The notes under the pieces: generated by a model
The model's input: only the letters and a program-made list of their open reading frames with translations
Told to the model about the DNA's origin: nothing
The model's database searches: none
DNA from: Candidatus Omnitrophota bacterium
GTDB taxonomy: Bacteria > Omnitrophota > Gorgyraeia > 2-01-FULL-45-10
Direction of reading: 5' to 3'
NCBI GenBank assembly: GCA_041648975.1
Contig: JBAZNZ010000004.1
Coordinates: 1,779 to 65,778 of the forward strand
Length of the DNA stretch: 64,000 nucleotides
Part shown: positions 2,692-52,149 of the stretch, piece by piece
How positions within the stretch are numbered: the first letter of the stretch is position 1
Layout: every line of letters starts with the position of its first letter
Made by a program: the position numbers and the translations under genes

Positions 2692-2741
2692 TGAATGTTA
2701 CGTAAGGTTATAGAACGTTAATTAAGGTTACGTAAGGTTAC
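2692..2741. repeat. 10-bp-period repeat array, left arm (GTTACGTAAG-type units x5) flanking the Avd-like gene
   Basis: gttacgtaag|gttatagaac|gttaattaag|gttacgtaag|gttac. Confidence 0.8.
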
Positions 2742-3187
2742 TTTCGAAATTTCTCTCCCGGTACCTTCCATGTCCCTTCCCGTTCCATCTTATATAGCGA
2801 TTTCATAAATTGATTTGCCATATATGTAGCACTCTGAAACATTCTTGAAAACTCATCAAACTCTTCATTTGATATCAGACCATCTTCAAGGCAATCTTCG
2901 ATATCGCCACTTAACTCTTCTAATGATCCAAGGCTAATTTTTATGCTATGACTATATTCTCCTACAGTTCCCTTTCTGTAACCTTCGCGTATATTTTGTT
3001 TTGCACTTCTAGCGGCGTCTCGCATCTGAGAAACCAATCTAAAATGATTCTTAGAAAATCTTTCTGTTAAATTATGAATAATCTTGCGTATTTGACAAAT
3101 ATCCTGATAAAATTTCAAATTTTCATAAGCTGGCTTTCGCCATCGTCGCTGTAACCTTACGGAACCTTCTCTAACCTTACGTAACAT
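2738..3187 (-). CDS. Four-helix-bundle protein (23S rRNA intervening-sequence protein / Avd-like family, TIGR02436)
   Basis: The YENLKFYQ...IREGY motif pattern is typical of this family. The Arg-rich N-terminal 19 aa are encoded by the flanking repeat array. Confidence 0.8.
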   Translation of the reverse strand: MLRKVREGSVRLQRRWRKPAYENLKFYQDICQIRKIIHNLTERFSKNHFRLVSQMRDAARSAKQNIREGYRKGTVGEYSHSIKISLGSLEELSGDIEDCLEDGLISNEEFDEFSRMFQSATYMANQFMKSLYKMEREGTWKVPGEKFRK

Positions 3188-6647: not shown

Positions 6648-7496
6648 TCACTCCATCATCCTGGAAAGAGGCACGAAGATTATGCCTTCCCTGCGCATCT
6701 CGGGCATCATCTTCGCAAGGACCGAGATCGTATTCTTCCTGTCATGGCAGACCGCTATAGCCCTGCCGTTCCTGAGCGCCGATCTCTTAAGCTCCATTAG
6801 CTGCTTTTCTATATACGCGGGATCGTTCGAATTGTCCAGGAAGACGTCCCTCCTCGCGTAACGGATCCCCGCGGCGGCTGCCGCTTGCCGGCATATGGAA
6901 TTCTCCGAAGTAAGGCTGTCAAAAAAATACAACCCATGCTTTTTTAAACGCTTGAATACGGCCGACATGACCTTCACATCTTCGGTAGCCTTCGAGCCCA
7001 TATGGTTCGACACGCCCTTTATCCCGGGAACACTCGCTATCTCCTTGTCAACCACCGCGAATATCTCCTCCTGAGTCATCCCGGACTTTATCGTATCCTG
7101 TTCTTCCCTGACGTCTTTCCGGTGAGGCTCTAACGGCATATGCAAAATAACTTCCTGGCCGCGCAGGTTCGCCAGCCTCGCTATCTCGGAGGAGTAACGC
7201 AGGTTCGGCAGCACCGATAATGTTATCGGCTCTTTTATATCAAATAGATCGTCCAGATTGGACACATTGTAACCGAAGTCGTCCATCACTATGGCGACTT
7301 TGGGGCCGCCTGCTTTCTTCTTCGCGGCAGTGGCCGCGGAAGCCGCCGGGGCTCTCTTCTTCGCGGCCGGAGCGGCGACGCGTATCCTCGGCGTTTCCTG
7401 TTTCGGCCGGAAGAGATGCGTATTCCGCCAGTATATTACTCCTGCGATTATGACCAATGCCGCTATTACCGCAAATCTGATTAATCTGGTATTCAT
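6648..7496 (-). CDS. Divergent polysaccharide deacetylase family protein (YibQ-like)
   Basis: Signal anchor, then VAIVMDDFGYN...ILHMPLEP...NHMGS, the YibQ/DUF610 pattern. Confidence 0.75.
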   Translation of the reverse strand: MNTRLIRFAVIAALVIIAGVIYWRNTHLFRPKQETPRIRVAAPAAKKRAPAASAATAAKKKAGGPKVAIVMDDFGYNVSNLDDLFDIKEPITLSVLPNLRYSSEIARLANLRGQEVILHMPLEPHRKDVREEQDTIKSGMTQEEIFAVVDKEIASVPGIKGVSNHMGSKATEDVKVMSAVFKRLKKHGLYFFDSLTSENSICRQAAAAAGIRYARRDVFLDNSNDPAYIEKQLMELKRSALRNGRAIAVCHDRKNTISVLAKMMPEMRREGIIFVPLSRMME

Positions 7497-8788
7497 TTTT
7501 CCTGTGGTTTATATATTTTAAAGGCCTTTATCAAATTCACCGCCATATCTAGCTGGTTATCCATCTCGACCTTATCCTGATCGAGCGCCTCTTTCGGGCG
7601 CGGCGCGCCTTCTCTTTCGACCTTCTCAAAGACGTCGGAACCATCCGGTTTCTTTTCATCCCTGGACTCTTCTCTATCTATTACCACGTCCGGCACAACA
7701 CCGGCATTCTTGATAAGCTTGCCGCTCGGCGTTAGATATAAGGCTGTTGTGAACCTGACAGCCGAATTATCCCTTAGCGGGACCACCGTCTGGACAGACG
7801 CCTTGCCGAACGTCTTTGTGCCGAGGACTATCCCCCGCTTATTATCCTGGACCGCTCCGGCGACTATCTCCGAAGCGCTTGCCGACCCTTCGTTCACCAT
7901 CACGACAAGCGGATAGTCCGGGTGCGTAGACTTCCCGCTCGACTTGAATACGGCGTCATTCTCGGAGCTCCTCGATTTTATCGATACAATGACCTTATCC
8001 TTAGGCAACAATCTTTCGGACACTCCTATCGCGCCCTCCAGGAGGCCTCCCGGATTATTGCGAAGGTCCAGTATGAGCGCGTTCATGCCGTCGGCTTCGA
8101 GCCTCTTCATAGCCGCCTCAAGATCGCGCGCAGTATTCTCCTGGAACTCTACAAGCTTTATATACCCTATCTTATCCTCGAGGAAAACGGCTTTCTTTAT
8201 GCTCTGTATCTTTATCACCGCTCTCTTAAGCGGCACCTCAAGGATCTTCTGGTCTTTCTCCCTCCATATCGTAAGGGCAAGCGGCGTACCCGGCTTGCCG
8301 CGCATCTCTTTCACAGCCTCATCGAGGGTCATCTTCTTCGTAATCTTGCCGTCTATCTTAACTATCTTGTCGCCCGGTTTTATGCCGGCCGTCTCCGCGG
8401 GAGTGCCGGATATGGGCGCGATCACCGTAAGTATCCCGTCCTTCATCGATATCTCTATGCCTATCCCGCCGAACTCGCCTTTAGTCTCAAGCCTCAGGTC
8501 GTTGTACTCGTCCGGCTCGAGGAACTGGCTGAAGTCGTCCATTGACGAAAGCATCCCCTTCAGCGCGCCGTAAACAAGTTTTTTTGAATCCACTTCTTCG
8601 ACGTAATCGCTCCTTAAGATGCTTATGGCGTCGGCAAAGAGTTCCAGCTGCGCGTACAGGTTGTCTTTGGACCTCTCTTTATCCGGTTTGCCTTTTTCGA
8701 ATCCGCCCGTCGCGATCGACGTTACAAGGACCAGCAATATCATGAAAAAGAATATCTTCCAACGCCTTGATATCGTCATTATCTTCAT
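7493..8788 (-). CDS. C-terminal processing peptidase, S41 family (CtpA/Prc-like) with PDZ domain
   Basis: PDZ (GIKPGDKIVKIDG) followed by the S41 catalytic region (LILDLRNNPGGLL, serine/lysine dyad context). Confidence 0.85.
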   Translation of the reverse strand: MKIMTISRRWKIFFFMILLVLVTSIATGGFEKGKPDKERSKDNLYAQLELFADAISILRSDYVEEVDSKKLVYGALKGMLSSMDDFSQFLEPDEYNDLRLETKGEFGGIGIEISMKDGILTVIAPISGTPAETAGIKPGDKIVKIDGKITKKMTLDEAVKEMRGKPGTPLALTIWREKDQKILEVPLKRAVIKIQSIKKAVFLEDKIGYIKLVEFQENTARDLEAAMKRLEADGMNALILDLRNNPGGLLEGAIGVSERLLPKDKVIVSIKSRSSENDAVFKSSGKSTHPDYPLVVMVNEGSASASEIVAGAVQDNKRGIVLGTKTFGKASVQTVVPLRDNSAVRFTTALYLTPSGKLIKNAGVVPDVVIDREESRDEKKPDGSDVFEKVEREGAPRPKEALDQDKVEMDNQLDMAVNLIKAFKIYKPQEK

Positions 8789-10284: not shown

Positions 10285-10656
10285 TTATACAGACGCTATA
10301 AGCTTCCCGAGCATATTACATATATGGATACAATTTTGTCTCAGTCCCGTGTGGCGCTGTTCTGAAATAATATTTTGCCTGGCCAGTATAGTCAGCATAG
10401 GAATACATTCTCGTGCAGAATTCAAAGAGATGCGATAGAATTGAGTCTTTTCTCTCTTCGATAATTTACCACTGCCCTCTGCCATATTATTAACTATCGA
10501 TAGAGATGCTCTGCGTAATTGATCCGCCAGGGAGAATTGGTAATCCCGCGGCAATTCTTTTGTCACATTAAATATATCCTGCACAAATTCTAATCCCATC
10601 CCATACACTTTTAATCTTTCAAAATCAAATATATATAGTTCTTTTTCATTATACAT
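10285..10656 (-). CDS. Four-helix-bundle protein (23S rRNA IVS / Avd-like family), second copy
   Basis: Family pattern (FERLKVYGMGLEFVQDIF ... NMAEGSGK). Sits exactly between two inverted TGTGTAA arrays. Confidence 0.8.
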   Translation of the reverse strand: MYNEKELYIFDFERLKVYGMGLEFVQDIFNVTKELPRDYQFSLADQLRRASLSIVNNMAEGSGKLSKREKTQFYRISLNSARECIPMLTILARQNIISEQRHTGLRQNCIHICNMLGKLIASV

Positions 10657-10704: not shown

Positions 10705-12146
10705 TCTGGCTTTCTTCTATGGTGTTCTGTCGACTGCTCAAACGCGTACGCCGCGCGCAATATCGTCTCTTCATCGAACGCCTTCCCTATCACCTGCAGC
10801 CCTATCGGGAGCCCCGCCTTAGTGAAACCGCACGGCACCGATATCGCGGGAAGCCCCGCCAGGTTCGCGGGAATAGTAAATACGTCCGAGAGATACATGC
10901 TTATCGGGTCTTCGGACCTTTCTCCGATCTTAAACGCGGCTGTAGGCGACGTCGGAGTGACGATGCAGTCGCAGTTATTCTCAAAAGCCTTCTCAAAATC
11001 CTCTTTAATCTTCGTCCTGACTTTCAAGGCTTTCACATAATACGCGTCGTAGTAACCCGTCGAAAGGCAATAGGTCCCGAGAAGGATCCTGCGCTTAGCC
11101 TCATCGCCGAAACCCTGCGAGCGCGTTTTGATATACATATCTATCATGTCTTTCGGGTCTTCCGCGCGGAGCCCATATTGGACGCCGTCGAAACGCGCGA
11201 GGTTCGAGCTCGCCTCTGCCGGACCGATAATATAGTAAGTGCTGACCGCGTATTCGGTGTGCGGCAGGCTTATCTCTACGATCCTGGCGCCGAGGCCTTT
11301 CAACACCTCAATGGCTCCCCTCACGCCTTTTTCTACCTCTTCCTCGATACCCTTTATGAAATATTCTTTCGGGACGCCGAGGCGCATCCCTTTTATGTCT
11401 TTGACGAGCGACTTCGTGTAGTCAGGCACCGGCGCGTCGACAGACGTTGAATCCATCTCATCGTGGCCCGCGATCACGCCAAGGAGAAGCGCGGCGTCCT
11501 CCACGTCCTTTGTTATCGGCCCTATCTGGTCTAGGCTGGAGGCGAACGCAATGAGCCCGTAACGGGAGACCCTGCCGTATGTCGGCTTCATACCGACGAC
11601 CCCGCAGAGGCTCGCGGGCTGTCGTATAGATCCGCCCGTGTCGGAACCGAGGGCGAGTATCGTCTCATCGGAGGCGACTGCCGCGGCGCATCCTCCGCTC
11701 GAACCGCCGGGGATCCTGTTAATATCCCACGGGTTCTTCGTCGGACCGTAGCAGGACGTCTCGCATGACGAGCCGAACGCGAACTCGTCCATGTTCGCCT
11801 TCCCTATCAGGATCGCGCCCTCTTCGTTCATCTTCCTGATCACGGTCGCGTCGTACGGCGGCTTGAAGCCTTTCAATATCCTCGAGCAGCAAGTCGTCTC
11901 TTCTCCCAGGACGCACATATTGTCTTTTACCAGGACCGGGATGCCGGAGAGCCTCCCGCGCTTATTGGCCTGGGTCTTTGCGCGCTCGACCGCCTTCTCC
12001 TTGCCCGGAAGCGCGAATGCCCTGATGCTCGGCTCGACAGCGCTTATCCTGTCGAAAAGCTCGTCGACTATCTTAGACGGCTGCAACCCTTCGCCGCTGA
12101 TCAGTTTTTTCAGTTCATGGGCCGTCAATGAATACAATTTTTCCAT
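10689..12146 (-). CDS. gatA: Glu-tRNA(Gln) amidotransferase subunit A
   Basis: Amidase signature GGSSGG...SLDQIGP, full length, between gatC and gatB. Confidence 0.95.
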
Positions 12147-12497
12147 CTATTTGCCTTCTATCCTTCGACGGGGCTCAGGATAGAATCCTGAGCTTTTGCC
12201 GAAGGATTCTATTATCTGCGGAACTTTAAAAAAGTCGCCTTCTTTCGATGGCGCGTTCTTGAGGGCCTCTTCCGGCTTTAACGATCCCTTAGGCGCGTCT
12301 TTCCTGAAGACGTTCTTAAGGCTCGCCAAAGGGTGGCTTGTAGGCTGGACGTTATCGGTGCTTAATTGATTTAATTTGCTTATATAAGATAATATAGATT
12401 CCAATTGTCCGGAATAAGAGCTAAGCTCTTTGTCGCTAAGACGAAGCCTGGCGAGAAGAGCGACATGTTTTACGGTCTCTTTGTCAATCTTTGGCAT
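12147..12497 (-). CDS. gatC: Glu-tRNA(Gln) amidotransferase subunit C
   Basis: ETVKHVALLARLRLSDKEL GatC pattern; start of the gatCAB operon. Confidence 0.9.
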   Translation of the reverse strand: MPKIDKETVKHVALLARLRLSDKELSSYSGQLESILSYISKLNQLSTDNVQPTSHPLASLKNVFRKDAPKGSLKPEEALKNAPSKEGDFFKVPQIIESFGKSSGFYPEPRRRIEGK

Positions 12498-12545
12498 AAT
12501 ATTATTACCTTTTGATATACCTTACCACAGTATATCGAGAATGTC

Positions 12546-12563
12546 AAATTTGCGTGCAAATTT
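12546..12563. promoter_or_regulatory. Palindromic operator-like site 1 upstream of gatC (AAATTTGC-GT-GCAAATTT), overlapping a TTGACA -35
   Basis: Perfect 8-bp arms with a 2-nt spacer. Minus strand reads ...aaatTTGACAttc. Confidence 0.4.
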
Positions 12564-12568
12564 GATAC

Positions 12569-12607
12569 TGAGGCATCGAAAAAAATGCGACTAGCGAGAG
12601 CATTTTT
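12569..12607 (-). terminator. Hairpin between the two operator-like sites (possible rsmA terminator or attenuator)
   Basis: ggcatcGAAAAAAATGCgactagcgagaGCATTTTTAgatgcc: 8-bp inner stem plus 6-bp outer stem. Weak U-tract. Confidence 0.25.
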
Positions 12608-12626
12608 AGATGCCGAAGTATCTTTA

Positions 12627-12646
12627 AAATTTGCGTGTAAATTTGG
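12627..12646. promoter_or_regulatory. Palindromic operator-like site 2 (AAATTTGCGTGTAAATTTGG), near-direct repeat of site 1, 80 bp away
   Basis: aaatttgcgtgtaaattt differs from site 1 (aaatttgcgtgcaaattt) by one substitution (C to T). Lies at the rsmA stop. Confidence 0.35.
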
Positions 12647-12648
12647 TA

Positions 12649-13488
12649 TCAATCGATTGAGTTCGCGATCCGCGCGAAGTCGGCGAGGCTTAAAGATTCC
12701 GGCCGGGAGGCCGGATCTACGGCTATCTTTTCTAATATCGAGGAAAGGCGCTCTTTTGGGATGCCGAGGACCTCTTCCCTGGAGAGGGAATTTATTATCG
12801 ACTTGCGCCTCTGGTTAAAAGATCCTCTTATGACCTTAAAAAGCGCTCCGTCATCCTTCGCCTCTACGGAAGGCCTGTCCAGGATATCGAGCCTTACCAG
12901 GCTTGAATCGATGTCAGGCGACGGATAAAAAGACGTCCTCTTTATTTTGTATATATGCTTTGGTCTTGTATAGTATTGGATAAAACAGCTGAGCGAGCTG
13001 TAATCTTTCGCGCCCGGTTCTGCCAGGATGCGGTCGGCAAACTCTTTCTGGACCACCATCACCACATATTTTATCGACAATCTGTTATCGATCAGGCACT
13101 CGATGATCGGGGTCGTGATATAATACGGCAGGCACCCCACCACTTTAAGCTTGCCCGCGGCGGAGGCCTTTTTGATGTCGAATTTCAATATGTCTTCGTT
13201 AAAGATACGCAGGCTGGGAAAGTCGTCTCCGATTATCTCTTCAAGTATGCCGTATGCCTTCTTATCCTTTTCCACCGCGGTCACGGCCGCGCCGGAACGC
13301 GCGAGGTCTATCGTAAGCGCGCCAAGCCCCGGGCCTATCTCCAGGACTCTATCGCCGGATAAGGCGCCCGCCTCGGATATTATCTTATCCCTTATATTCC
13401 CATCGATGAGATAGTTCTCTCCAAGCCTCTTCAAAGGCCTGAATCCGTATTTCGCAAACACTTCTTTTAGCTGAGTCTTGGTTAACAT
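12649..13488 (-). CDS. rsmA: 16S rRNA (adenine1518/1519-N6)-dimethyltransferase
   Basis: KRLGENYLID...LEIGPGLGALT KsgA/RsmA motifs. Confidence 0.95.
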   Translation of the reverse strand: MLTKTQLKEVFAKYGFRPLKRLGENYLIDGNIRDKIISEAGALSGDRVLEIGPGLGALTIDLARSGAAVTAVEKDKKAYGILEEIIGDDFPSLRIFNEDILKFDIKKASAAGKLKVVGCLPYYITTPIIECLIDNRLSIKYVVMVVQKEFADRILAEPGAKDYSSLSCFIQYYTRPKHIYKIKRTSFYPSPDIDSSLVRLDILDRPSVEAKDDGALFKVIRGSFNQRRKSIINSLSREEVLGIPKERLSSILEKIAVDPASRPESLSLADFARIANSID

Positions 13489-13507
13489 GTTTTAGTTCAA
13501 ACAACTT

Positions 13508-13648
13508 TGTGCAATGTGTAAAGTTTAATGTGTAATGTTGGTGTAAAGTAATCATGTGTAATGGAAAATTCGCTCAATTCAATCTTTTTTCATTACACAA
13601 TAATCCATTAAACCTGCTTTACACATTACACATCTAACATTACACAAA
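13508..13648. repeat. Palindromic TGTGTAA/TTACACA array with no gene at its centre (empty site), between rsmA and pdxA; supplies the pdxA stop codon
   Basis: About 8 TGTGTAA-type units, centre ggaaaattcgctcaattcaatctttttt, about 8 TTACACA units. The last unit ttacacaaaagtg contains the pdxA TAA. Confidence 0.85.
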
Positions 13649-14614
13649 AGTGTTATGCGTACAAAGCCGGTATGCCAGGAGAATCGCCTCGATCATCGAT
13701 GATGGGTCGGCCGTCCCTTTGCCCGCTATGTCAAACGCCGTCCCGTGGTCGGGGGAGGTCCTGACGAACGGCAAGCCTATGGTCAGATTAACGCCATCCT
13801 TAAAATATAGCAGCTTGAACGGTATAAGGCCCTGGTCGTGGTACATGGCAACGACCGCGTCGTACTTCCCGTTCATTAGATCGGCAAATATCACGTCGGC
13901 CGGGATCGGGCCGCTTATCCGGCCGACCTTTGCCGTGGCTTTCTCTATGGCGGGGATTATCGCCTTATCTTCTTCGTCGCCAAAGGCGCCGTTCTCGCCC
14001 GCATGCGGATTTAATCCCGAGACCCCTATGCGTGGATCTTTTATGTTGAAATATTCGCGCAGGTATTTATGGGTTATGCATATCGTCCTGCATATCGGCT
14101 CCACTGCAAGACTTCCAGGCACGCGCCTTAACGCGATGTGTCTGGTCACGAGCGTGATCTTAAGCCTGCCGCCGACGAACATCATCGCGAAATTCTTCGA
14201 GCCCGTCTTTTCAGCGAGATACTCGGTGTGTCCCTCGAACTTTTTAATTCCGGCCATCCTTATGGACATCTTGTTTACGGGAGCGGTTACGAGAGCGTCG
14301 GCTTCGCCCTTACGCAGGAGCCGGATGGCAGCGTCCAGATATCCTATCGCGGCTTTTCCAAAGACCGGGCTCTGAACGCCGTATTTAAAAGAGGCTGCAG
14401 GTACATTGGCTAGGTCTAAGAGCTCACACTTAAACTTCAGGGCCATGTCGCCCGCCGTCCTGTCCAGGGCGGCCCTGTCCCCTATAAGCAAAAAATCGGC
14501 AAGCCCTTTTATCTTTGGACTTGCCAGCGCCTTGAGGGTCACTTCCGGCCCTACGCCGGACGGGTCACCCATAGTAATGACTATCTTTTTTTTATTTGAA
14601 CGCGATGTATGCAT
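13640..14614 (-). CDS. pdxA: 4-hydroxythreonine-4-phosphate dehydrogenase
   Basis: IVITMGDPSGVGPEV PdxA N-terminus; surA-pdxA-ksgA synteny. Confidence 0.9.
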   Translation of the reverse strand: MHTSRSNKKKIVITMGDPSGVGPEVTLKALASPKIKGLADFLLIGDRAALDRTAGDMALKFKCELLDLANVPAASFKYGVQSPVFGKAAIGYLDAAIRLLRKGEADALVTAPVNKMSIRMAGIKKFEGHTEYLAEKTGSKNFAMMFVGGRLKITLVTRHIALRRVPGSLAVEPICRTICITHKYLREYFNIKDPRIGVSGLNPHAGENGAFGDEEDKAIIPAIEKATAKVGRISGPIPADVIFADLMNGKYDAVVAMYHDQGLIPFKLLYFKDGVNLTIGLPFVRTSPDHGTAFDIAGKGTADPSSMIEAILLAYRLCTHNTFV

Positions 14615-45898: not shown

Positions 45899-47587
45899 TC
45901 AAGATGTTATGATGATAAAATCCCAGGGCAATATTTCATCGGAAAGCCGGGCCCTGCCGGCATAGAACGAGTGGTCGACGCCTGCCTTCTCGAACGCCGC
46001 CATCCAGAGATCGAAATTGAACCTGTCTTTCCATCCGTCAAAACGCGCGCCGGACTTCCAGGCCTCATACACAACAGCGGCAAGAGCCCTGTCCCCTCTC
46101 GAAAAGACAGCTTCAAGATAACTCATCTTGACGGAATGAAAATCCATTTCGACCATCTTTGACCTCATCGACTTCCGCAATAAGTCGATCTTTTTATTCA
46201 GGATAGCGGCGCTGTCCATGGGCTCTCTCTGAAAAGGCGTGTGCGGCTTCGGGACGAAGGCATTTATGCTGGCGGTGATGTGGGCGGACTTTCCGTCAAC
46301 CTCCCTCTTAAGGTCGGAGATCTTGTATATCATCTCAGATATCGAGAGCAGGTCTTTCTCGGTTTCGCCCGGCAGTCCTATCATAAAATATAGTTTTACG
46401 TGCCGCCACCCGGCCTTATAAGATTCCAGCGCGGCGTGAAACAGTTTTTCTATGTCGATACCTTTATTAAGCGACTTCCTCAATTCGGGAGTTCCGGCCT
46501 CCGGCGCGAACGTAAGGCCCGCCTTCTTAACATTCGATATCAGGAGCGGCAGGTTTTTAAGCGCATCCTCTATCCTGAGCGACGGCACGGATATGGACAC
46601 GGACCGAGGGCCGAACTCTTCGTTAAGGCGCGCCATGATCTCCGGCAGGCGGGAATGGTCGACGCTGGAAAGAGAGAGAAGAGATATCTCGTCGTAGCCC
46701 GTCCGGGCGTAAGATTCCCGGGCAAGCTCCAGGATCTTCCCTACCGACCTTTCGCGGCAGGGCCTGTACGTAACCGTAGCCTGGCAGAATTTACACCCGT
46801 GTTTGCATCCGCGCATTATTTCAATTATCAGCCTGTCGTGGATTATCTGGATATTCGGGACTATCTGCTTGACCGGATAATACGCGTCATCTAGATTTCC
46901 GACAAATCGTTTTATTATCTTTGCCGGAGCGTCTTTCTCGATAATGGAAAATTTCTTCGGCGTTCCGTCTTCATTATATTCTGTATTATAAAATGACGGA
47001 ACATAAATACCTTTTATTTTGGAAAGGCGCGTCAATAATTCTTTTCTCGACTCTCCGGCCTTGTACGCATCCACGATCTCCGAGATGACCTCTTCCCCGT
47101 CGCCGATAACGAATGCGTCGATAAATTCCGCTATCGGCTCGGGGTTGTAACAGGAAGGGCCGCCCGCTATGATCAGCGGATCCTCATCCGTCCGTTCCGG
47201 CGCCCTCAGCGGGATCCGCCCAAGGTCCAGCATGTTCAGCACATTGGTATATCCGAGTTCATAGGTAACGCTGAACCCTATTATGTCAAAATCTTTAATG
47301 GGCCTTCTCGTCTCAAGACTAAAGAGGTCGAGATTATTTTTTCTTAAAACATCTTCGAAATCGCCCCATGGAGAAAAAACTCTTTCGCAAAGGCAGTCAT
47401 CCCGGTCATTCAGTATCCCGTATAATATCTTTGTCCCGAGATAACTCATCCCCACTTCATAGAGGTCGGGAAACGCGAGGAGCACCTTAACCTTATCGTC
47501 CGTCCACTCCTTCCGGACAGAGTTCCACTCCCCTCCGCAATACCTCCCGGGCTTCTGCACCGTCAGCAATAATTCTTCAAGATTCAT
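45899..47587 (-). CDS. Radical SAM protein, TIGR03960-like (B12-binding-like N-domain + radical SAM core)
   Basis: CKHGCKFC (CxxxCxxC) motif and family-typical N-terminus LLTVQKPGRYCGGEWNSV. Confidence 0.8.
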   Translation of the reverse strand: MNLEELLLTVQKPGRYCGGEWNSVRKEWTDDKVKVLLAFPDLYEVGMSYLGTKILYGILNDRDDCLCERVFSPWGDFEDVLRKNNLDLFSLETRRPIKDFDIIGFSVTYELGYTNVLNMLDLGRIPLRAPERTDEDPLIIAGGPSCYNPEPIAEFIDAFVIGDGEEVISEIVDAYKAGESRKELLTRLSKIKGIYVPSFYNTEYNEDGTPKKFSIIEKDAPAKIIKRFVGNLDDAYYPVKQIVPNIQIIHDRLIIEIMRGCKHGCKFCQATVTYRPCRERSVGKILELARESYARTGYDEISLLSLSSVDHSRLPEIMARLNEEFGPRSVSISVPSLRIEDALKNLPLLISNVKKAGLTFAPEAGTPELRKSLNKGIDIEKLFHAALESYKAGWRHVKLYFMIGLPGETEKDLLSISEMIYKISDLKREVDGKSAHITASINAFVPKPHTPFQREPMDSAAILNKKIDLLRKSMRSKMVEMDFHSVKMSYLEAVFSRGDRALAAVVYEAWKSGARFDGWKDRFNFDLWMAAFEKAGVDHSFYAGRARLSDEILPWDFIIITS

Positions 47588-47705
47588 CTTTTCAACTCCA
47601 TTAAGCCTCGCCTAAACCTAAGCACTGAAAATATTTCCCATTAATTTTTCGGGTCCCCGCCTGCCAGCGAGAGACTGCTTCAGGCGGGCAGGCTGCCGCG
47701 GCTTG

Positions 47706-47740
47706 GACTTTTTCTTTTAAAGGGCTCGTATGGGTTTACA
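47706..47740. repeat. Outer inverted repeat, left copy (IR-L), of the DUF3800 segment
   Basis: GACTTTTTCTTTTAAAGGGCTCGTATGGGTTTACA is the reverse complement of 49222-49257 (33/35 identical). Confidence 0.85.
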
Positions 47741-47747
47741 AACTGTA

Positions 47748-47779
47748 GTCGTAGGGGAGGTTTAAACCTCCCCTACGAC
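47748..47779. repeat. Perfect 32-bp palindrome (14-bp stem, TTAA loop) immediately inside IR-L
   Basis: GTCGTAGGGGAGGTTTAAACCTCCCCTACGAC. Confidence 0.9.
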
Positions 47780-47828
47780 ATAAGCGCGTATCTATATGCC
47801 CGAACTATTCTCTTCTGTATTCGGGACA

Positions 47829-47935
47829 CCCCATCCCTGCCCGCCAGACTTAGCTTGCTGCGATCAGGCGGGCATACTTCGCCCTTTATCGAGAAAAAGT
47901 CTGGAAGGAGCGTCACCCGTAAAAAATTCCCACCC
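47829..47935. repeat. Inner repeat copy B: GC hairpin (TGCCCGCC...GGCGGGCA) plus core motif CGCCCTTTATCGAGAAAAAGTCTGGAAGGAGCGTCACCCGTAAAAAATTCC
   Basis: Direct-orientation copy of the core motif shared with IR-R. A related hairpin (CCCGCCTG...CAGGCGGG) lies at 47655-47690 next to IR-L. Confidence 0.75.
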
Positions 47936-48152
47936 CACTTCCTTTTGCCGGCCAGGTTCGCTTTTCGCTCACCTGGCCGTCCTCCAACCTGCTTCCCACA
48001 AAGACCTAATATTATTCCCGCCCGGAAACATACGCGGGGCGGGATCCCGCCTCGCGTTAGATTCTAGGCGGGACAATGTGCTCACATAACGTCGGCTTAG
48101 GTTTTTAGCACTAAATTAACGTCCTTATAGGTCATCCCTACGAGATCATATT

Positions 48153-48947
48153 TCAATTATTGCCTATAGTCTTTTGCTCAATGTTTTCTGCTTGAGTAAA
48201 ATATTTTGATAAATTTGCAGTAAAAAATCTATTATTTTTTTGAAATATCTTTTTGAATTCGCTCTCTTTATCCTTTTTATAATATTTTCTGAATCCATTT
48301 GCGAGAGAATGGGCCATCTTCACGCAATATTCTGAATCATCTGCTTCTGAGATACTAACTACTAGCGCTTCTTCGCCCTTAAAATAAGGGGCGTTTGCAT
48401 ACCTGTTAACAGCTTTTGATACCCCCCGCAGTCTTTCATCTATCCACCTTCTCGCTTGCTCCTCAATTATTTCACGTTCTCTAATTTTTAATGAATATCT
48501 GTCGTATTTTATAAAAATATTATTTATTCTTTCTTTACAAGACACAATATCAAATATTGAATGTACAAGCGTCAAGCCATACGAAACTAGCCATACATAA
48601 TTATTTAAGGATGATATTTCTTTATTATTAAGCAAACTACTATTTTTTCGAGCCTCATATGCCTTGATAATAATATCACGGATTTTAGAATCGCTAAAAT
48701 TATAATATACGACATTAGCATACAATCTATGTCTCGTTAATATATCATTTAACATAATAAGATCATTATAAGAAGCTCCGCTTTTTCGTTCACAAAATTT
48801 ATATTGTTCTTTTTCTAATAACTCAACGTTTCCCCCGAGGTGACTTATTACAGCAAAACAAAAACAATTATCCTCTTGCTCTAACTCCTTATATCCTGAT
48901 TCATCACTAAAACAATATAGAGGATTACCTACGATCGCATCATTCAT
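48153..48947 (-). CDS. DUF3800-like hypothetical protein on an AT-rich insert
   Basis: N-terminal PLYCFSDESGY resembles the DUF3800 hh.DESG start. Composition is strongly AT-rich relative to flanks. Own promoter-like TTGATG-16-TATTAT. Confidence 0.55.
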   Translation of the reverse strand: MNDAIVGNPLYCFSDESGYKELEQEDNCFCFAVISHLGGNVELLEKEQYKFCERKSGASYNDLIMLNDILTRHRLYANVVYYNFSDSKIRDIIIKAYEARKNSSLLNNKEISSLNNYVWLVSYGLTLVHSIFDIVSCKERINNIFIKYDRYSLKIREREIIEEQARRWIDERLRGVSKAVNRYANAPYFKGEEALVVSISEADDSEYCVKMAHSLANGFRKYYKKDKESEFKKIFQKNNRFFTANLSKYFTQAENIEQKTIGNN

Positions 48948-49012
48948 TATTATTCACCATATCTTAATTGTACACCGTCTTTACTAAAATATTTAACCAG
49001 TTATTTGGATAA

Positions 49013-49040
49013 ATAATATCTATTACTAAGAAAGCATCAA
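49013..49040 (-). promoter_or_regulatory. Candidate promoter of the DUF3800 gene (TTGATG-16-TATTAT)
   Basis: Minus strand reads cTTGATGctttcttagtaatagaTATTATttatcc, with an AT-rich leader and SD GGTGA. Confidence 0.35.
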
Positions 49041-49060
49041 GTTCGCGCTGCTTCTATATG

Positions 49061-49140
49061 AAAATTTTTACGGGTGATGCTCCTTCCAGACTTTTTCTCG
49101 ATAAGGGCGAAGTTTGGGATGGGGCAGTACAGATACGCGC
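49061..49140. repeat. Inner repeat copy D, an inverted and partly deleted copy of the 47780-47935 segment
   Basis: aaaatttttacgggtgatgctccttccagactttttctcgataagggcgaag...gggatggggcag..agatacgcgc is the reverse complement of ...gcgcgtatct...ccccatccc...cttcgccctttatcgagaaaaagtctggaaggagcgtcacccgtaaaaaatt. Confidence 0.8.
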
Positions 49141-49221
49141 ACAGAATATACCTTAATGTCATGACTTCAGTGTCAAGTTAGACCGTTATCTACACCTTTT
49201 AGTATAAAGAAATAGGGAGAT

Positions 49222-49257
49222 TGTAAACCCCAAACGAGCCCTTTAAAAGAAAAAGTC
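49222..49257. repeat. Outer inverted repeat, right copy (IR-R), of the DUF3800 segment
   Basis: TGTAAACCCCAAACGAGCCCTTTAAAAGAAAAAGTC. Confidence 0.85.
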
Positions 49258-49330
49258 GAAGGAGCAGCAGGACCCGTAAAAATTTGATTCCACATAGGCA
49301 ACTGCCCGCAAGTTCCACGCGGACTGAGAT

Positions 49331-49365
49331 GCGAAAAATTAAAACGTCGAGCGGCGCATGCCGAC
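49331..49365 (-). terminator. Terminator-like hairpin overlapping the rodA stop codon
   Basis: Minus strand reads CGTCGGCATGCGCCGCTCGACG then TTTTAATTTTT. Confidence 0.4.
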
Positions 49366-50427
49366 GTTCAGCAAGAGCCCGATCGCGATGAGCGTAGTGA
49401 TGAGGCTCGATCCGCCGTAACTCACCAGAGGAAGCGGTATGCCGACGACAGGCATAAGCCCTATCGTCATCGATATATTTATTATCACCTGAAGCGATAA
49501 CATCACGCCGATGCCGGTAGCTATCGCCTTCCCGTACATATCGTTTGTGAGCGCGGCTATATTGAACGCGCGTTTTACGATGATAAAATACAATAGGATC
49601 AGCAGCACGGCTCCTAAAAATCCCCACTCTTCGCCGATCACCGAAAATATGAAATCGGTATGCCTTTCGGGTAGAAAATTCAACTGGTTTTGAGTGCCGT
49701 TCATCCATCCCTTTCCAAAGAATCCCCCCGAACCTACAGCTATCTTCGACTGAATAATAGTATATCCTGCCCCTAAAGGATCTATATTAGGATTAAGGAA
49801 TACCAGGAGTCTCTGCCTCTGGTATTCGCGTAAGCCGTGCCAGAAGAAAGGAAGCCCGGCAAGGCCCAACATGATCATGCCTGCCACATATTTTAAATTA
49901 ACTCCGCTTACGGCCAGTATAGAGAAAAAAACAGGGATCAACAGAAGCGCGGTCCCAAGGTCCGGTTGGAGAAGGACGAGAACGAACGGCACGGCCAGCA
50001 ATACAGAAGGGCCGACGATCCCCGTAAAACCGCTCATGGAATTTTTTCTGGTGCCCGCGTAATTCGATAGAGCGAGGATAACGCTTAACTTCATGAACTC
50101 AGACGGCTGGAACGCAAACCCGCCGATGGAGATCCATCGCTGGGCGCCAAGCCTGGCGTGTCCTAATACAAGCACCAGCACCAGCAGTATAATATTTATC
50201 CCGTAAAATATATATGACAGGTCGATAAATTTCTGGTATGAGACAGATACGCATATTATTAAAAAGACGATCCCGATGATCACGAAATTGGCTTGCCGGA
50301 ACAGATAGCTTTCGGCGAACGGTAGCGCCTTCGCCTGCGTAGCGCTGAATACGGACAATAGGCCTATTATCAAGATAAGGAACGTTACGGTAATGAGCGT
50401 CTTGTCAAGGTCCTTAAAGATCCTCAT
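49339..50427 (-). CDS. rodA: SEDS-family peptidoglycan polymerase RodA
   Basis: FtsW/RodA polytopic pattern, immediately downstream of mrdA. Confidence 0.85.
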   Translation of the reverse strand: MRIFKDLDKTLITVTFLILIIGLLSVFSATQAKALPFAESYLFRQANFVIIGIVFLIICVSVSYQKFIDLSYIFYGINIILLVLVLVLGHARLGAQRWISIGGFAFQPSEFMKLSVILALSNYAGTRKNSMSGFTGIVGPSVLLAVPFVLVLLQPDLGTALLLIPVFFSILAVSGVNLKYVAGMIMLGLAGLPFFWHGLREYQRQRLLVFLNPNIDPLGAGYTIIQSKIAVGSGGFFGKGWMNGTQNQLNFLPERHTDFIFSVIGEEWGFLGAVLLILLYFIIVKRAFNIAALTNDMYGKAIATGIGVMLSLQVIINISMTIGLMPVVGIPLPLVSYGGSSLITTLIAIGLLLNVGMRRSTF

Positions 50428-52149
50428 TTACAGATACCCCTTCTTTTTCGCTTCCTCGAATATTCCGTGCGCGATCGCGGCAGGCTCTATTCCGCCCTTG
50501 CCCCCATGTTCGAGAAATACTACTACACAGATCCTGGGATCGTCGTACGGCGCGAATCCGGCAAACCAGGCATGCGTCTTTCCCAGAGGATTCTCTGCCG
50601 TGCCGGTCTTGCCCGCGGCGACCACACCCTCTGCCCTTGCGCGCTTGGCCGTCCCGTTCGGGTCATTTATGACATCGAACATCCCTTCCCTTATGCGCTG
50701 GATCGTCGAGGTCCTAAGGCCTATCTTCTTCTTTTTCTCGGAGCGCATCTCATCTCCGTTTATCTTTTTCACTATATACGGCCTGACGAGACTGCCGCCA
50801 TTCGCAATAACAGAGGTCATGCAGAGCACCTGTATGGGCGTTACCATAAGATAGCCCTGGCCGATCGCGTAGTTCACCGTCTCACCTTCATACCATGCGC
50901 CTTTCCCCGCGGAGCGTTTCCATGCTTTTCCGGGGACCAGCCCTTTCACCTCGTCCGGCAGGTCTATGCCCGTAAGCGCGCCGTATCCGAAAAGCCTGGC
51001 ATACGACTCCATGGCGTCGACTCCCGCCGCTCTTCCCGCGCTGTAGAAAAAGAAGTTGCAGGAATTCATTATACCCTTACGCAAGTTCTGCGGCCCGTGC
51101 CCCGTCTCTTTCCAGCAATTGAACCTCGCGGAACCCAGCTTATAATACCCCGGGCAGGTAAAGATAGTATCCGGAGATATCTTTCTCGTTTCAAGGGCGG
51201 CGGCCGCGGTCACTATCTTGAATACTGAGCCGGGTGGATACAATCCCGATATCGCCCTGTTTGACATGGGTCTTCCCGCCTTGTTCGTGAATAAAAATTC
51301 CCTCCGGCCGGATGTATTCGGTTTCACGAAGATGTTCGGATCGAACGGCGGATGGCTGGCGAGAGCAAGCACCTCGCCGCTCCTTGGATCCATGACTATG
51401 ACCGCGCCCCTATGCTCTCCCAACAATCTGTCGCACGTAGACTGCAGGTCGGCATCTATGGTCAGATACAGGTCTTTCCCGACGGAGGGTTCTTTCAAAC
51501 CAAGCACCCGTGTCTGACGACCCTTACTGTCGACCTCTATCTGCGTGCCGCCGTCAACCCCCTTCAGGTAAGATTCATAATATTTCTCGAGACCGGAGCG
51601 GCCCATAAGGTCTCCCATGCGGTAACCGTACTCCCTTAAGCCCTCTAATTCCTCTTCGGCAACCTCTCCTAAATAACCGAATATGTGGCTGCCGTCTTTG
51701 CCGAGCCTGTAATCGCGCTTGGACTTTGTCTCGACCACGAGTCCGCCTATATTAAAGCTTGCCTCTTCGAGCATGACGGCTTTGTCCTTGTCCACATCTT
51801 CCGCTATCGTCACCGCGGTGTAAGGCCCGAGGCTCGCCTTTTCCAGGGAATTGATTATTTCGATGCCGGACATCCCTAGCGTCTCTTTCAATACGCGGAC
51901 GAGCTTTGCCCTGTCGCTCAACTCGCGGTAGATTACAGCCGCGTCAAACGAGAGCCGGTTCGACACAAGCGGTATCCCGTTCCTGTCGAATATTATGCCC
52001 CTTGGCCCGTCTATGGGTATTATGCGTATGGAGTTATTCTTGGAAAGCTTCGTATAGTATGGACACCTGATTATCTGCGTGTAAAATAGGCCGACCGCCA
52101 GCATAATGAAAAAAGCGGAAATTGCGGAAGTCAATATCCTGTCTCTCAT
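50428..52149 (-). CDS. mrdA: Penicillin-binding protein 2 (elongasome transpeptidase)
   Basis: PBP dimerisation domain plus transpeptidase SxxK/SxN/KTG motifs; mreBCD-mrdA-rodA order. Confidence 0.9.
   Translation of the reverse strand: MRDRILTSAISAFFIMLAVGLFYTQIIRCPYYTKLSKNNSIRIIPIDGPRGIIFDRNGIPLVSNRLSFDAAVIYRELSDRAKLVRVLKETLGMSGIEIINSLEKASLGPYTAVTIAEDVDKDKAVMLEEASFNIGGLVVETKSKRDYRLGKDGSHIFGYLGEVAEEELEGLREYGYRMGDLMGRSGLEKYYESYLKGVDGGTQIEVDSKGRQTRVLGLKEPSVGKDLYLTIDADLQSTCDRLLGEHRGAVIVMDPRSGEVLALASHPPFDPNIFVKPNTSGRREFLFTNKAGRPMSNRAISGLYPPGSVFKIVTAAAALETRKISPDTIFTCPGYYKLGSARFNCWKETGHGPQNLRKGIMNSCNFFFYSAGRAAGVDAMESYARLFGYGALTGIDLPDEVKGLVPGKAWKRSAGKGAWYEGETVNYAIGQGYLMVTPIQVLCMTSVIANGGSLVRPYIVKKINGDEMRSEKKKKIGLRTSTIQRIREGMFDVINDPNGTAKRARAEGVVAAGKTGTAENPLGKTHAWFAGFAPYDDPRICVVVFLEHGGKGGIEPAAIAHGIFEEAKKKGYL

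Follow-up and report, generated by a model that had tools for sequence, protein, structure and literature searches.

In the Candidatus Omnitrophota metagenome-assembled genome (MAG) GCA_041648975.1, we analyzed a 64,000-nt stretch of contig JBAZNZ010000004.1 (hereafter the window, to which coordinates refer unless a retrieved locus is named). Within it, a 1,751-bp spacer separates rodA from a radical SAM gene and holds an AT-rich gene, ORF264, between inverted repeats. Our analysis makes it probable, with good confidence, that two independent copies of a palindromic repeat flank one foreign gene that landed in a pre-existing repeat mosaic. The original prediction had instead taken the four repeats as the bounds of a single unit, either a cargo element or an invertible segment. 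This reading was not upheld, since the left-hand pair of repeats (A+B) and the right-hand pair (C+D) each stand alone at 18 or more other sites: at least 18 further copies, 228 to ~480 bp in length, were found in intergenic positions of the same MAG without ORF264. The core motif therefore proved to be dispersed, the outcome that the prediction had itself named as contradicting it. The nested appearance of the locus (minus, plus, gene, minus, plus) arises because each element is palindromic, the arms of the subtypes are related, and one element lies on each side of the gene.

Two palindromic elements and their dispersed relatives

Both nested inverted pairs that had been claimed around ORF264 were recovered, including the internal insertions and deletions of the inner one. 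The outer pair (47693-47737 and 49226-49270) is 45 nt long and 87% complementary, with a core (47706-47734 and 49229-49257) that is 96.6% identical. The inner pair (47883-47928 and 49062-49107) covers 46 nt at 93% and continues in more collinear pieces (47873-47886 with 49103-49116, and 47784-47796 with 49128-49140); these further pieces imply that the left inner copy carries insertions. Alignment of the four copies gave a unit of ~48 nt, GCCCTTTA..GAAAAAGTC..GAAGGAGC..ACCCGTAAAAATTT, arranged minus, plus, gene, minus, plus, in agreement with the predicted order of inverted and direct shared cores, and showed that copy A is split by a 37-nt GC hairpin. The 19-mer core has two exact matches in the window, compared to 0.07 expected by chance, and no further copies of the unit occur in the 64 kb outside the rodA-radical SAM spacer.

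Copies A and B form a 309-bp element of a long type with terminal inverted repeats (TIRs) at 47636-47944, which is a deletion derivative. It contains arm A (47641-47740, with hairpin H1 inside it at 47655-47692), a palindrome (47748-47779), a hairpin at 47799-47825, hairpin H2 (47838-47874) and arm B (47881-47928). Copies C and D form a 228-bp element of a short type at 49059-49286, consisting of arm C (49062-49108), a central region and arm D (49238-49285). No strand is assigned to either element. Each folds on itself into a long hairpin (z = -7.8 for C+D and -6.0 for A+B), and a search of 47400-49500 against Rfam 15 (E ≤ 1) returned nothing relevant and no family similar to the repeats.

The palindrome at 47748-47779 is a perfect one of 32 bp, as predicted. 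Hairpins of the form CCCGCC...GGCGGG lie at 47656-47688, 47840-47872, 48017-48043 and 48046-48072, the last two of which were missing from the earlier list; these four in the spacer compare to none elsewhere in the 64 kb, with 0.17 expected. The palindrome and GC hairpins thus exist as described, but they are internal modules of a dispersed family rather than marks of the boundary of the locus.

The dispersed copies were found by searching JGI metagenome contigs with a degenerate four-unit pattern, which gave 31 loci (retrieved loci are referred to as L001 and so on), ~20 of them on at least 13 contigs of Ga0265297. By BLAST and nhmmer, the Ga0265297 loci hold the element in full length, with 89-97% identity to A+B or C+D. 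Two pattern matches on viral contigs showed no similarity past the pattern and were taken as chance. Exact-sequence look-ups gave the genes beside the copies accessions in the range MFA49811xx-MFA49823xx and the locus tag WC592_, as for rodA and ORF264 of the window. With an nhmmer profile of the unit, every complete copy proved to be a (-)(+) doublet, and the fetched loci held one doublet per site, the exception being L104, which has an extra lone arm ~4.4 kb from its doublet.

Family members share the termini AAATTTTTACGGG...CCCGTAAAAATTT and arms of ~48-55 nt that are imperfect terminal inverted repeats. They fall into two size classes, a short one of 228 bp, of which C+D is typical, and a long one of ~480 bp with the 32-bp palindrome and several GC hairpins. 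C+D is 89-95% identical over its full length to copies at L084 (4095-4321), L089 (8627-8855), L092 (9986-10232), L094 (3492-3720) and L108 (2544-2752). A+B matches L085, L095, L102, L105, L106 and L112 in two pieces that are 92-98% identical, and lacks ~165 nt that these copies carry between two TGGGTTTA repeats. The GC hairpins are optional: H1 is present in the A arm of most long copies and in the D arm of L108, while H2 is missing in L104. Of 16 complete elements, 14 have the same arm-centre variant, GAAGGAGCA or CAAGCCGCG, on both sides, and the two hybrids are L106 and the A+B element of the window, whose variants are CAAGCCGCG in arm A and GAAGGAGC in arm B. This agreement may reflect selection for pairing, or it may mark two sublineages, since the copies are related by descent. 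Together with a difference between strains where the repeat block ends (described below), the TGGGTTTA-flanked deletion of ~165-170 nt and the hybrid arms bear out the suggestion that the inner copies look like footprints of rearrangement.

The genes beside the copies are unrelated to one another and include queA, rluA (pseudouridine synthase), oppB, pgk, a T2SS/T4P (type II secretion system/type IV pilus) ATPase gene, glycosyltransferase genes and ilvE. Paralogy of neighbours as a source of the repeats was ruled out, with one related pair among the 27 flanking ORFs (open reading frames) compared. In ~11 of 17 copies, the A/D-type end lies 9-215 nt 5' of a start codon, suggesting that this end could act as an outward promoter or leader, or that insertion near gene starts is preferred. 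We noted an A/D end close to a gene start at L084, L092, L094, L102, L104, L105, L106, L108 and L111, and at 47636 in the window, and in many cases a common leader, GTGCTC..ATAAC..GGCTTAGGTT, comes after this end.

No consistent direct repeat was detected outside AAATTTTTACGGG...CCCGTAAAAATTT in the flanks of eight short-type and six long-type copies; TTCCC at the long copy of the window is a possible but weak target duplication. As had been stated, no recombinase or transposase was found in the window: the ~45 kb with Pfam annotation contained no Phage_integrase, Resolvase or DDE domain, and integrase, IS4 transposase, Hin and REP-associated tyrosine transposase (RAYT; REP, repetitive extragenic palindrome) seeds were negative against window ORFs of at least 80 aa. 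The sole IS4 element encountered, at L111, has flanks unrelated to the repeat termini. In the absence of a target duplication or a filled-versus-empty pair of sites, mobility is suggested by the dispersal of the copies.

The family combines terminal inverted repeats, a small non-coding body and multiple dispersed copies, as in miniature inverted-repeat transposable elements (MITEs), with dispersed intergenic inverted doublets, as in REPINs. No description of such repeats in Omnitrophota was found in the literature searched, and as far as we found, this mosaic family, which resembles MITEs, REPINs and bacterial interspersed mosaic elements (BIMEs), is undescribed for the phylum.

The spacer in paralogous and related loci

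Two further modules accompany the elements. Module X (47997-48105, no strand assigned) contains AAAGACCTAATATT, a double GC hairpin (48016-48073) and CAATGTGCTCACATAACGTCGGCTTAGGTTTT, and is 88% identical to positions 84-192 of an L089 slice; the L092 version lacks the double hairpin. It adjoins elements in either orientation at L108, L112, L085 and L102. Module Y follows stop codons at L084 and L094, and its start is found in the 43 nt 3' of the rodA stop, so that the 3' flank of rodA (49287-49338, minus strand) holds its first ~43-44 nt. At L089 and L092, module X is joined to a short element through 54-58 nt. In the window, 944 nt of AT-rich DNA with ORF264 lie between the corresponding anchors, 48105 and 49050. 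The gene geometry of L089 is otherwise that of the window: stop of the upstream gene, short element, module X, start of the downstream gene. No terminal repeats and no convincing target duplication were recognized at the AT-rich segment, where TTTAGCACTAAAT and TTTAACCAGTTATTT show a weak and unconvincing similarity.

Base composition sets this segment apart. GC content is 0.26-0.36 over 48050-49249 and 0.45-0.56 on both sides, bearing out the predicted break at the DUF3800-type gene. The locus-specific AT-rich part covers ~0.9 kb (48106-49025, minus strand; boundaries approximate, within ~25 nt) and includes ORF264 (WC592_01860, MFA4981203.1; 48153-48947, minus strand, 264 aa). With a GC content of 0.31, ORF264 is the lowest among 59 large ORFs in a window with a mean of 0.49.

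More distantly related Omnitrophota (L009, L010 and L012) have rodA directly next to the radical SAM gene, with ~30-90 nt between them. Another relative, L007 (JAGVGJ010000003.1, 6876-8000), has its rodA-radical SAM spacer occupied by a MazG gene and a RAYT-like Y1_Tnp gene, the latter between inverted repeats of its own (7262-7327 and 7912-7976; 34-65 nt, 82-96% complementary). Since this spacer is occupied as well, the site between rodA and the radical SAM gene is a recurrent landing place. L007 is also a textbook-looking RAYT arrangement in an Omnitrophota genome.

Over 9.1 kb, from 58420 down to 49296, the window has 99.57% identity to a sister MAG, L126 (GCA_028715235.1), which diverges at the latter position, 10 nt outside the D terminus. 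Beyond this point (L126 9090-9284) it has a full-length module Y and no short element, with 95% identity to L084 3835-4018. Here the two strains differ by replacement, at the border of the repeat block, rather than by a flip: had the arms recombined to invert the segment, the terminus beside rodA would be the same in both. The sister MAG has no contigs for the radical SAM gene and ORF264.

We also compared independent assemblies. An ENA contig is 100% identical to the window over 13 kb. Logan contigs of SRR8542065 (L001 and L083) end at repeat modules, namely at positions 48015, 49091 and 49256, as multi-copy repeats would lead one to expect. The NCBI assembly (the window), ENA and Logan all present one orientation only.

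The remaining parts of the region are conserved genes and shorter repeated stretches. All neighboring genes are on the minus strand: PBP2 (50428-52149), rodA (MFA4981204; 49339-50427), the TIGR03960-type radical SAM gene (45899-47587, start codon at 47587) and a GGDEF gene. The leader 5' of the radical SAM gene (47588-47635, minus strand) holds AAACCTAAGC at 47615-47623, a motif that occurs in the window at positions 47615 and 48095 only. The leader matches L092 10480-10509 at 93%, and resembles flanks of L094 and L111 by eye; the motif is part of a leader module that adjoins repeat ends at other loci. Between A+B and module X lies a partly repeated spacer (47945-47996, no strand assigned) with similarity to L088 and L084; 47910-47996 is 86% identical to L088 1789-1875, and 47910-47960 is 78% identical to L084. 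Elsewhere in the window, two AT-rich genes of the PF05635 family (23S_rRNA_IVP) interrupt housekeeping rows at 10285-10656 (GC 0.37) and 2738-3187 (GC 0.36), one between gatA and gatB and the other between purE and a Ni-insertion gene, with no repeat units beside them.

ORF264 and its family

ORF264 is a divergent member of the DUF3800 superfamily with a modeled RNase H type-2 fold. Its N-terminus (...LYCFSDESGY) places a DE motif, FSDESGY, at the end of the first strand, as in DUF3800 proteins, which have an N-terminal DE motif, a C-terminal QxxD and the fold of RNase H2 (1EKE/3PUF) (PMC7736814). The AlphaFold2 model (pLDDT 79, pTM 0.81) matched RNase HII 1eke with a Foldseek E value of 1.1e-4, and its best fold matches, with templates 1EKE and 3PUF, were RNase H2/H3 and not transposases. 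A profile search of the PDB gave noise only.

Searches of Pfam, PADLOC, PHROGs and NCBIfam with ORF264 yielded nothing significant, and PF12686 (gathering score 21 bits) was not matched even at E ≤ 10. With 22.3 bits, the relative P0003 (phmmer E = 3.5e-36 to ORF264) passes the gathering score; P0008 and P0002 score 17.0 and 14.6. Because P0003 passes while ORF264 itself does not, membership is transitive and holds at the level of the superfamily only. The description of the gene as DUF3800-like therefore holds for motif and fold but not for a direct PF12686 match.

The family is very small. An exhaustive phmmer search of 1.84 billion representatives yielded seven relatives at 25-32% identity, making eight clusters in all, and clustering of 5.8 billion proteins leaves ORF264 as a singleton. 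A word-indexed protein search returned the query only; P0008 was added with the family profile. Invariant columns of the eight-member alignment include D15, E16, G18, C30, F31, N116 and W119. At the position of the C-terminal QxxD, ORF264 has KMAH and P0003 has QLAH, while the six others have K/R-x-x-D, mostly K/R-I-A-D. Retron-linked DUF3800 proteins also lack the Q of QxxD (PMC7736814).

All family members have a GC content of 0.30-0.32 in hosts of 0.41-0.49, and ORF264 is probably a foreign gene acquired by this genome, judging from its composition. The original prediction of horizontal acquisition thus stands for the gene (GC 0.31, with rodA abutting the radical SAM gene in L009, L010 and L012), but not for a TIR-bounded cargo. 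No conserved flanks were found among the ORF264-family genes. P0003 is wedged in at oppA/oppB, between these two genes, and is surrounded by pieces of module Y and by small palindromes with GTAAAATTT in common. P0004 is part of an integrative island (L121 312-6351, Ga0598272_0000143) with an N6/N4 methyltransferase, a nuclease-like ORF, DUF5677, two helix-turn-helix (HTH/excisionase) genes and a tyrosine integrase; the island appears to be of the defence type. P0002 adjoins an ORF that we read by eye as a tyrosine-recombinase fragment.

The oppA-oppB spacer of P0003 belongs to a genome ~74% identical to this MAG (L115 4754-5771 and L116 1-1120), and the same spacer in this MAG holds a TIR element (L104 9004-9394). 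Both spacers measure 0.8-1.2 kb and have the motif GCGAAAAATTTTACC in common.

DUF3800 proteins are partners in type VII retrons (PMC7736814) and of Cas12a2 (PMC10910872), and 11 structured RNA motifs associate with DUF3800 genes, irrespective of side and orientation (PMC5737381). ORF264 resembles these proteins in its hh.DE(S/A)G N-terminus, its 1EKE/3PUF templates and its size of ~250 aa, and its family members occur in mobile or defence-type settings. It differs in being solitary, without a retron reverse transcriptase, Cas12 or a known DUF3800 RNA motif, and in having no Pfam match. None of the motifs DUF3800-I to -XI was detected at 47400-49500 or at seven family loci (Rfam 15, E ≤ 1). 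The family contexts, comprising lone operon inserts, tyrosine-recombinase neighbors and one restriction-modification island, fit an accessory or defence role, and ORF264 is probably an accessory, defence-related protein of nuclease fold.

The prediction had also given ORF264 a promoter-like element of its own. Promoter-like hexamers are present 5' of the gene (9, compared to 4.7 ± 2.3 expected), although not clearly above chance for AT-rich DNA.

Alternative explanations and comparison with known systems

Several observations weigh against the interpretation of two independent elements around a landed gene. The window is the sole retrieved locus with two complete elements within 1.6 kb, spaced ~1.1 kb apart, and its outer arms, A and D, are of the same subtype, as a composite element predicts. 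For no element did we find a filled-versus-empty orthologous site or a target duplication. A true empty allele was not seen in the sister strain either, where the contig stops 195 nt after rodA. Neither a RAYT nor a transposase with the family termini was found in ~277 kb (the window and ~213 kb of other contigs). Finally, P0003 and a second AT-rich gene, WC592_06400, also sit among repeat modules, so the link between gene and repeats may not be accidental.

WC592_06400 is encoded in the same MAG at L111 (11643-14176, Ga0265297_10001367). This ORF (12050-12682, GC 0.31) has an R-x4-H (HEPN-like) motif and no Pfam match. It lies between a repeat element and module Y, and adjoins an IS4-type DDE transposase gene (13010-14176).

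A composite or cargo transposon of 1.65 kb (47636-49286) could have carried ORF264 into the spacer, which we regard as improbable. The common subtype of A and D, which are outward-facing family termini and 87% complementary over 45 nt, would suit such an element, as would the divergence of the sister strain 10 nt outside the D terminus. The position of P0003, in another species, between small palindromes sharing GTAAAATTT, and the TIR element that this MAG has in its corresponding oppA-oppB spacer (L104), point in the same direction. However, A+B and C+D occur alone at 18 or more sites, no other A...D block with ORF264 was found, ORF264 is a singleton, and L089 and L092 have module X and the short element adjacent without a gene. 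The flanking elements are non-coding, and neither a target duplication (at 47636/49286) nor a transposase was found; other members of the ORF264 family have tyrosine-recombinase genes next to them but none of these motifs.

A second possibility is functional coupling, in which the DUF3800-type protein mobilizes or processes the hairpins, or the flanking structures are its nucleic-acid component. The geometry is reminiscent of RAYTs and REPINs, with a single-copy gene between palindromic doublets that have dispersed intergenic copies. DUF3800 genes associate with the 11 structured RNA motifs (PMC5737381), P0003 too lies among palindromes and module Y pieces, and no other mobilizing enzyme was found. 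If true, coupling would provide a concrete substrate for DUF3800 proteins and for their association with structured RNA, and a new non-HUH class of repeat-mobilizing nuclease. We consider it somewhat less plausible still than a cargo transposon. The members at L120, L121 and L123 have no such motifs nearby, those at L120 and L121 being beside tyrosine-recombinase genes, and Rfam detected no DUF3800 RNA motif in the window or the family loci. Moreover, the gene is foreign in composition, while the repeats are host-like in GC and already occur in its absence, and the best folds are RNase H2/H3 rather than transposases.

It is very unlikely that the segment is phase-variable, with inversion turning around either ORF264 or the radical SAM promoter region. 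Inverted repeats of 45-46 nt that are 1.1-1.5 kb apart could in principle support inversion, and the short element is oriented opposite to L084 relative to the module Y remnant (in L084, module Y is followed by C to D), which is compatible with a past inversion. Arms that are 87-93% identical with insertions and deletions would nevertheless make a poor site-specific switch, no recombinase was found in the window, and the same inverted doublets occur at many loci with nothing to switch. The NCBI, ENA and Logan contigs are all in one orientation, and the sister strain shows replacement with a changed terminus on the rodA side. An assembly artefact, with inverted duplications arising from chimeric assembly or amplification, is extremely unlikely despite the metagenomic origin of the sequence and the Logan breaks at repeats, because the copies are diverged (87-96%), the independent ENA assembly is identical over 13 kb, and the same elements occur on many contigs. 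Readings as an integron cassette or att sites were dropped, since each doublet is a dispersed stand-alone element.

Among MITEs and palindromic intergenic repeats, Correia/NEMIS elements are found in Neisseria, ERIC/IRU in enterobacteria and RUP in S. pneumoniae. The Omnitrophota elements resemble bacterial MITEs in size (228-480 bp), non-coding content, imperfect terminal inverted repeats and intergenic occurrence in tens of copies, often near gene starts. They would also form long hairpins when transcribed, and have size variants due to internal insertions and deletions. Unlike MITEs, they show no visible target duplication, no cognate insertion sequence with the same termini was found, their arms are unusually long (~48-55 nt), and their interior is a mosaic with optional GC hairpins and a 32-bp perfect palindrome.

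BIMEs are mosaic clusters of REPs in E. coli, where REPs of ~20-40 nt lie a few nt apart. The Omnitrophota elements share with BIMEs and REP/REPIN-RAYT systems their dispersed intergenic inverted doublets, mosaics (here with X, Y and GC hairpins) and lack of target duplication, and the relative L007 has a RAYT-like Y1 transposase in the same rodA-radical SAM spacer. In contrast to REPINs, the units are ~48 nt, lie 130-330 nt apart and have no GTAG-type head. RAYT systems differ further in that the gene flanked here encodes an RNase H-fold protein and not an HUH enzyme; no RAYT was found in the ~277 kb, and tblastn with the L007 RAYT gave nothing in the window or the loci. Inverted repeats around a gene and promoter-like sequences recall invertons (Hin, Fim and the Bacteroides type), but there is no adjacent invertase, the repeats are diverged with insertions and deletions and are dispersed, and a second orientation was not observed in the assemblies.

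We therefore return to two independent elements around a landed gene. In this model, the rodA-radical SAM spacer is a mosaic of dispersed non-coding modules into which one foreign gene was inserted. The elements would be MITE/REPIN-like and non-autonomous, their spread depending on a factor from another locus; since no target duplication is visible, a mechanism that recognizes single-strand hairpins (HUH/Y1-type) or a recombinational one would fit better than a DDE transposase. Elements that are co-transcribed would form long hairpins that could terminate, insulate or stabilize transcripts, and the A/D-type end may give an adjacent gene an outward promoter or leader. ORF264 would be expressed from its own AT-rich upstream region, and repeat-rich spacers may tolerate or attract such insertions.

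These data do not demonstrate a new mechanism. They correct a misreading, in that two palindromic repeats around a gene can mimic nested terminal repeats or an inverton. ORF264 extends DUF3800 to a very rare and consistently AT-rich subfamily. The repeats break short-read assemblies of this lineage predictably and can drop the ~1-kb piece with ORF264 from bins, and they mark strain-variable spacers within otherwise conserved rows of cell-wall and housekeeping genes.

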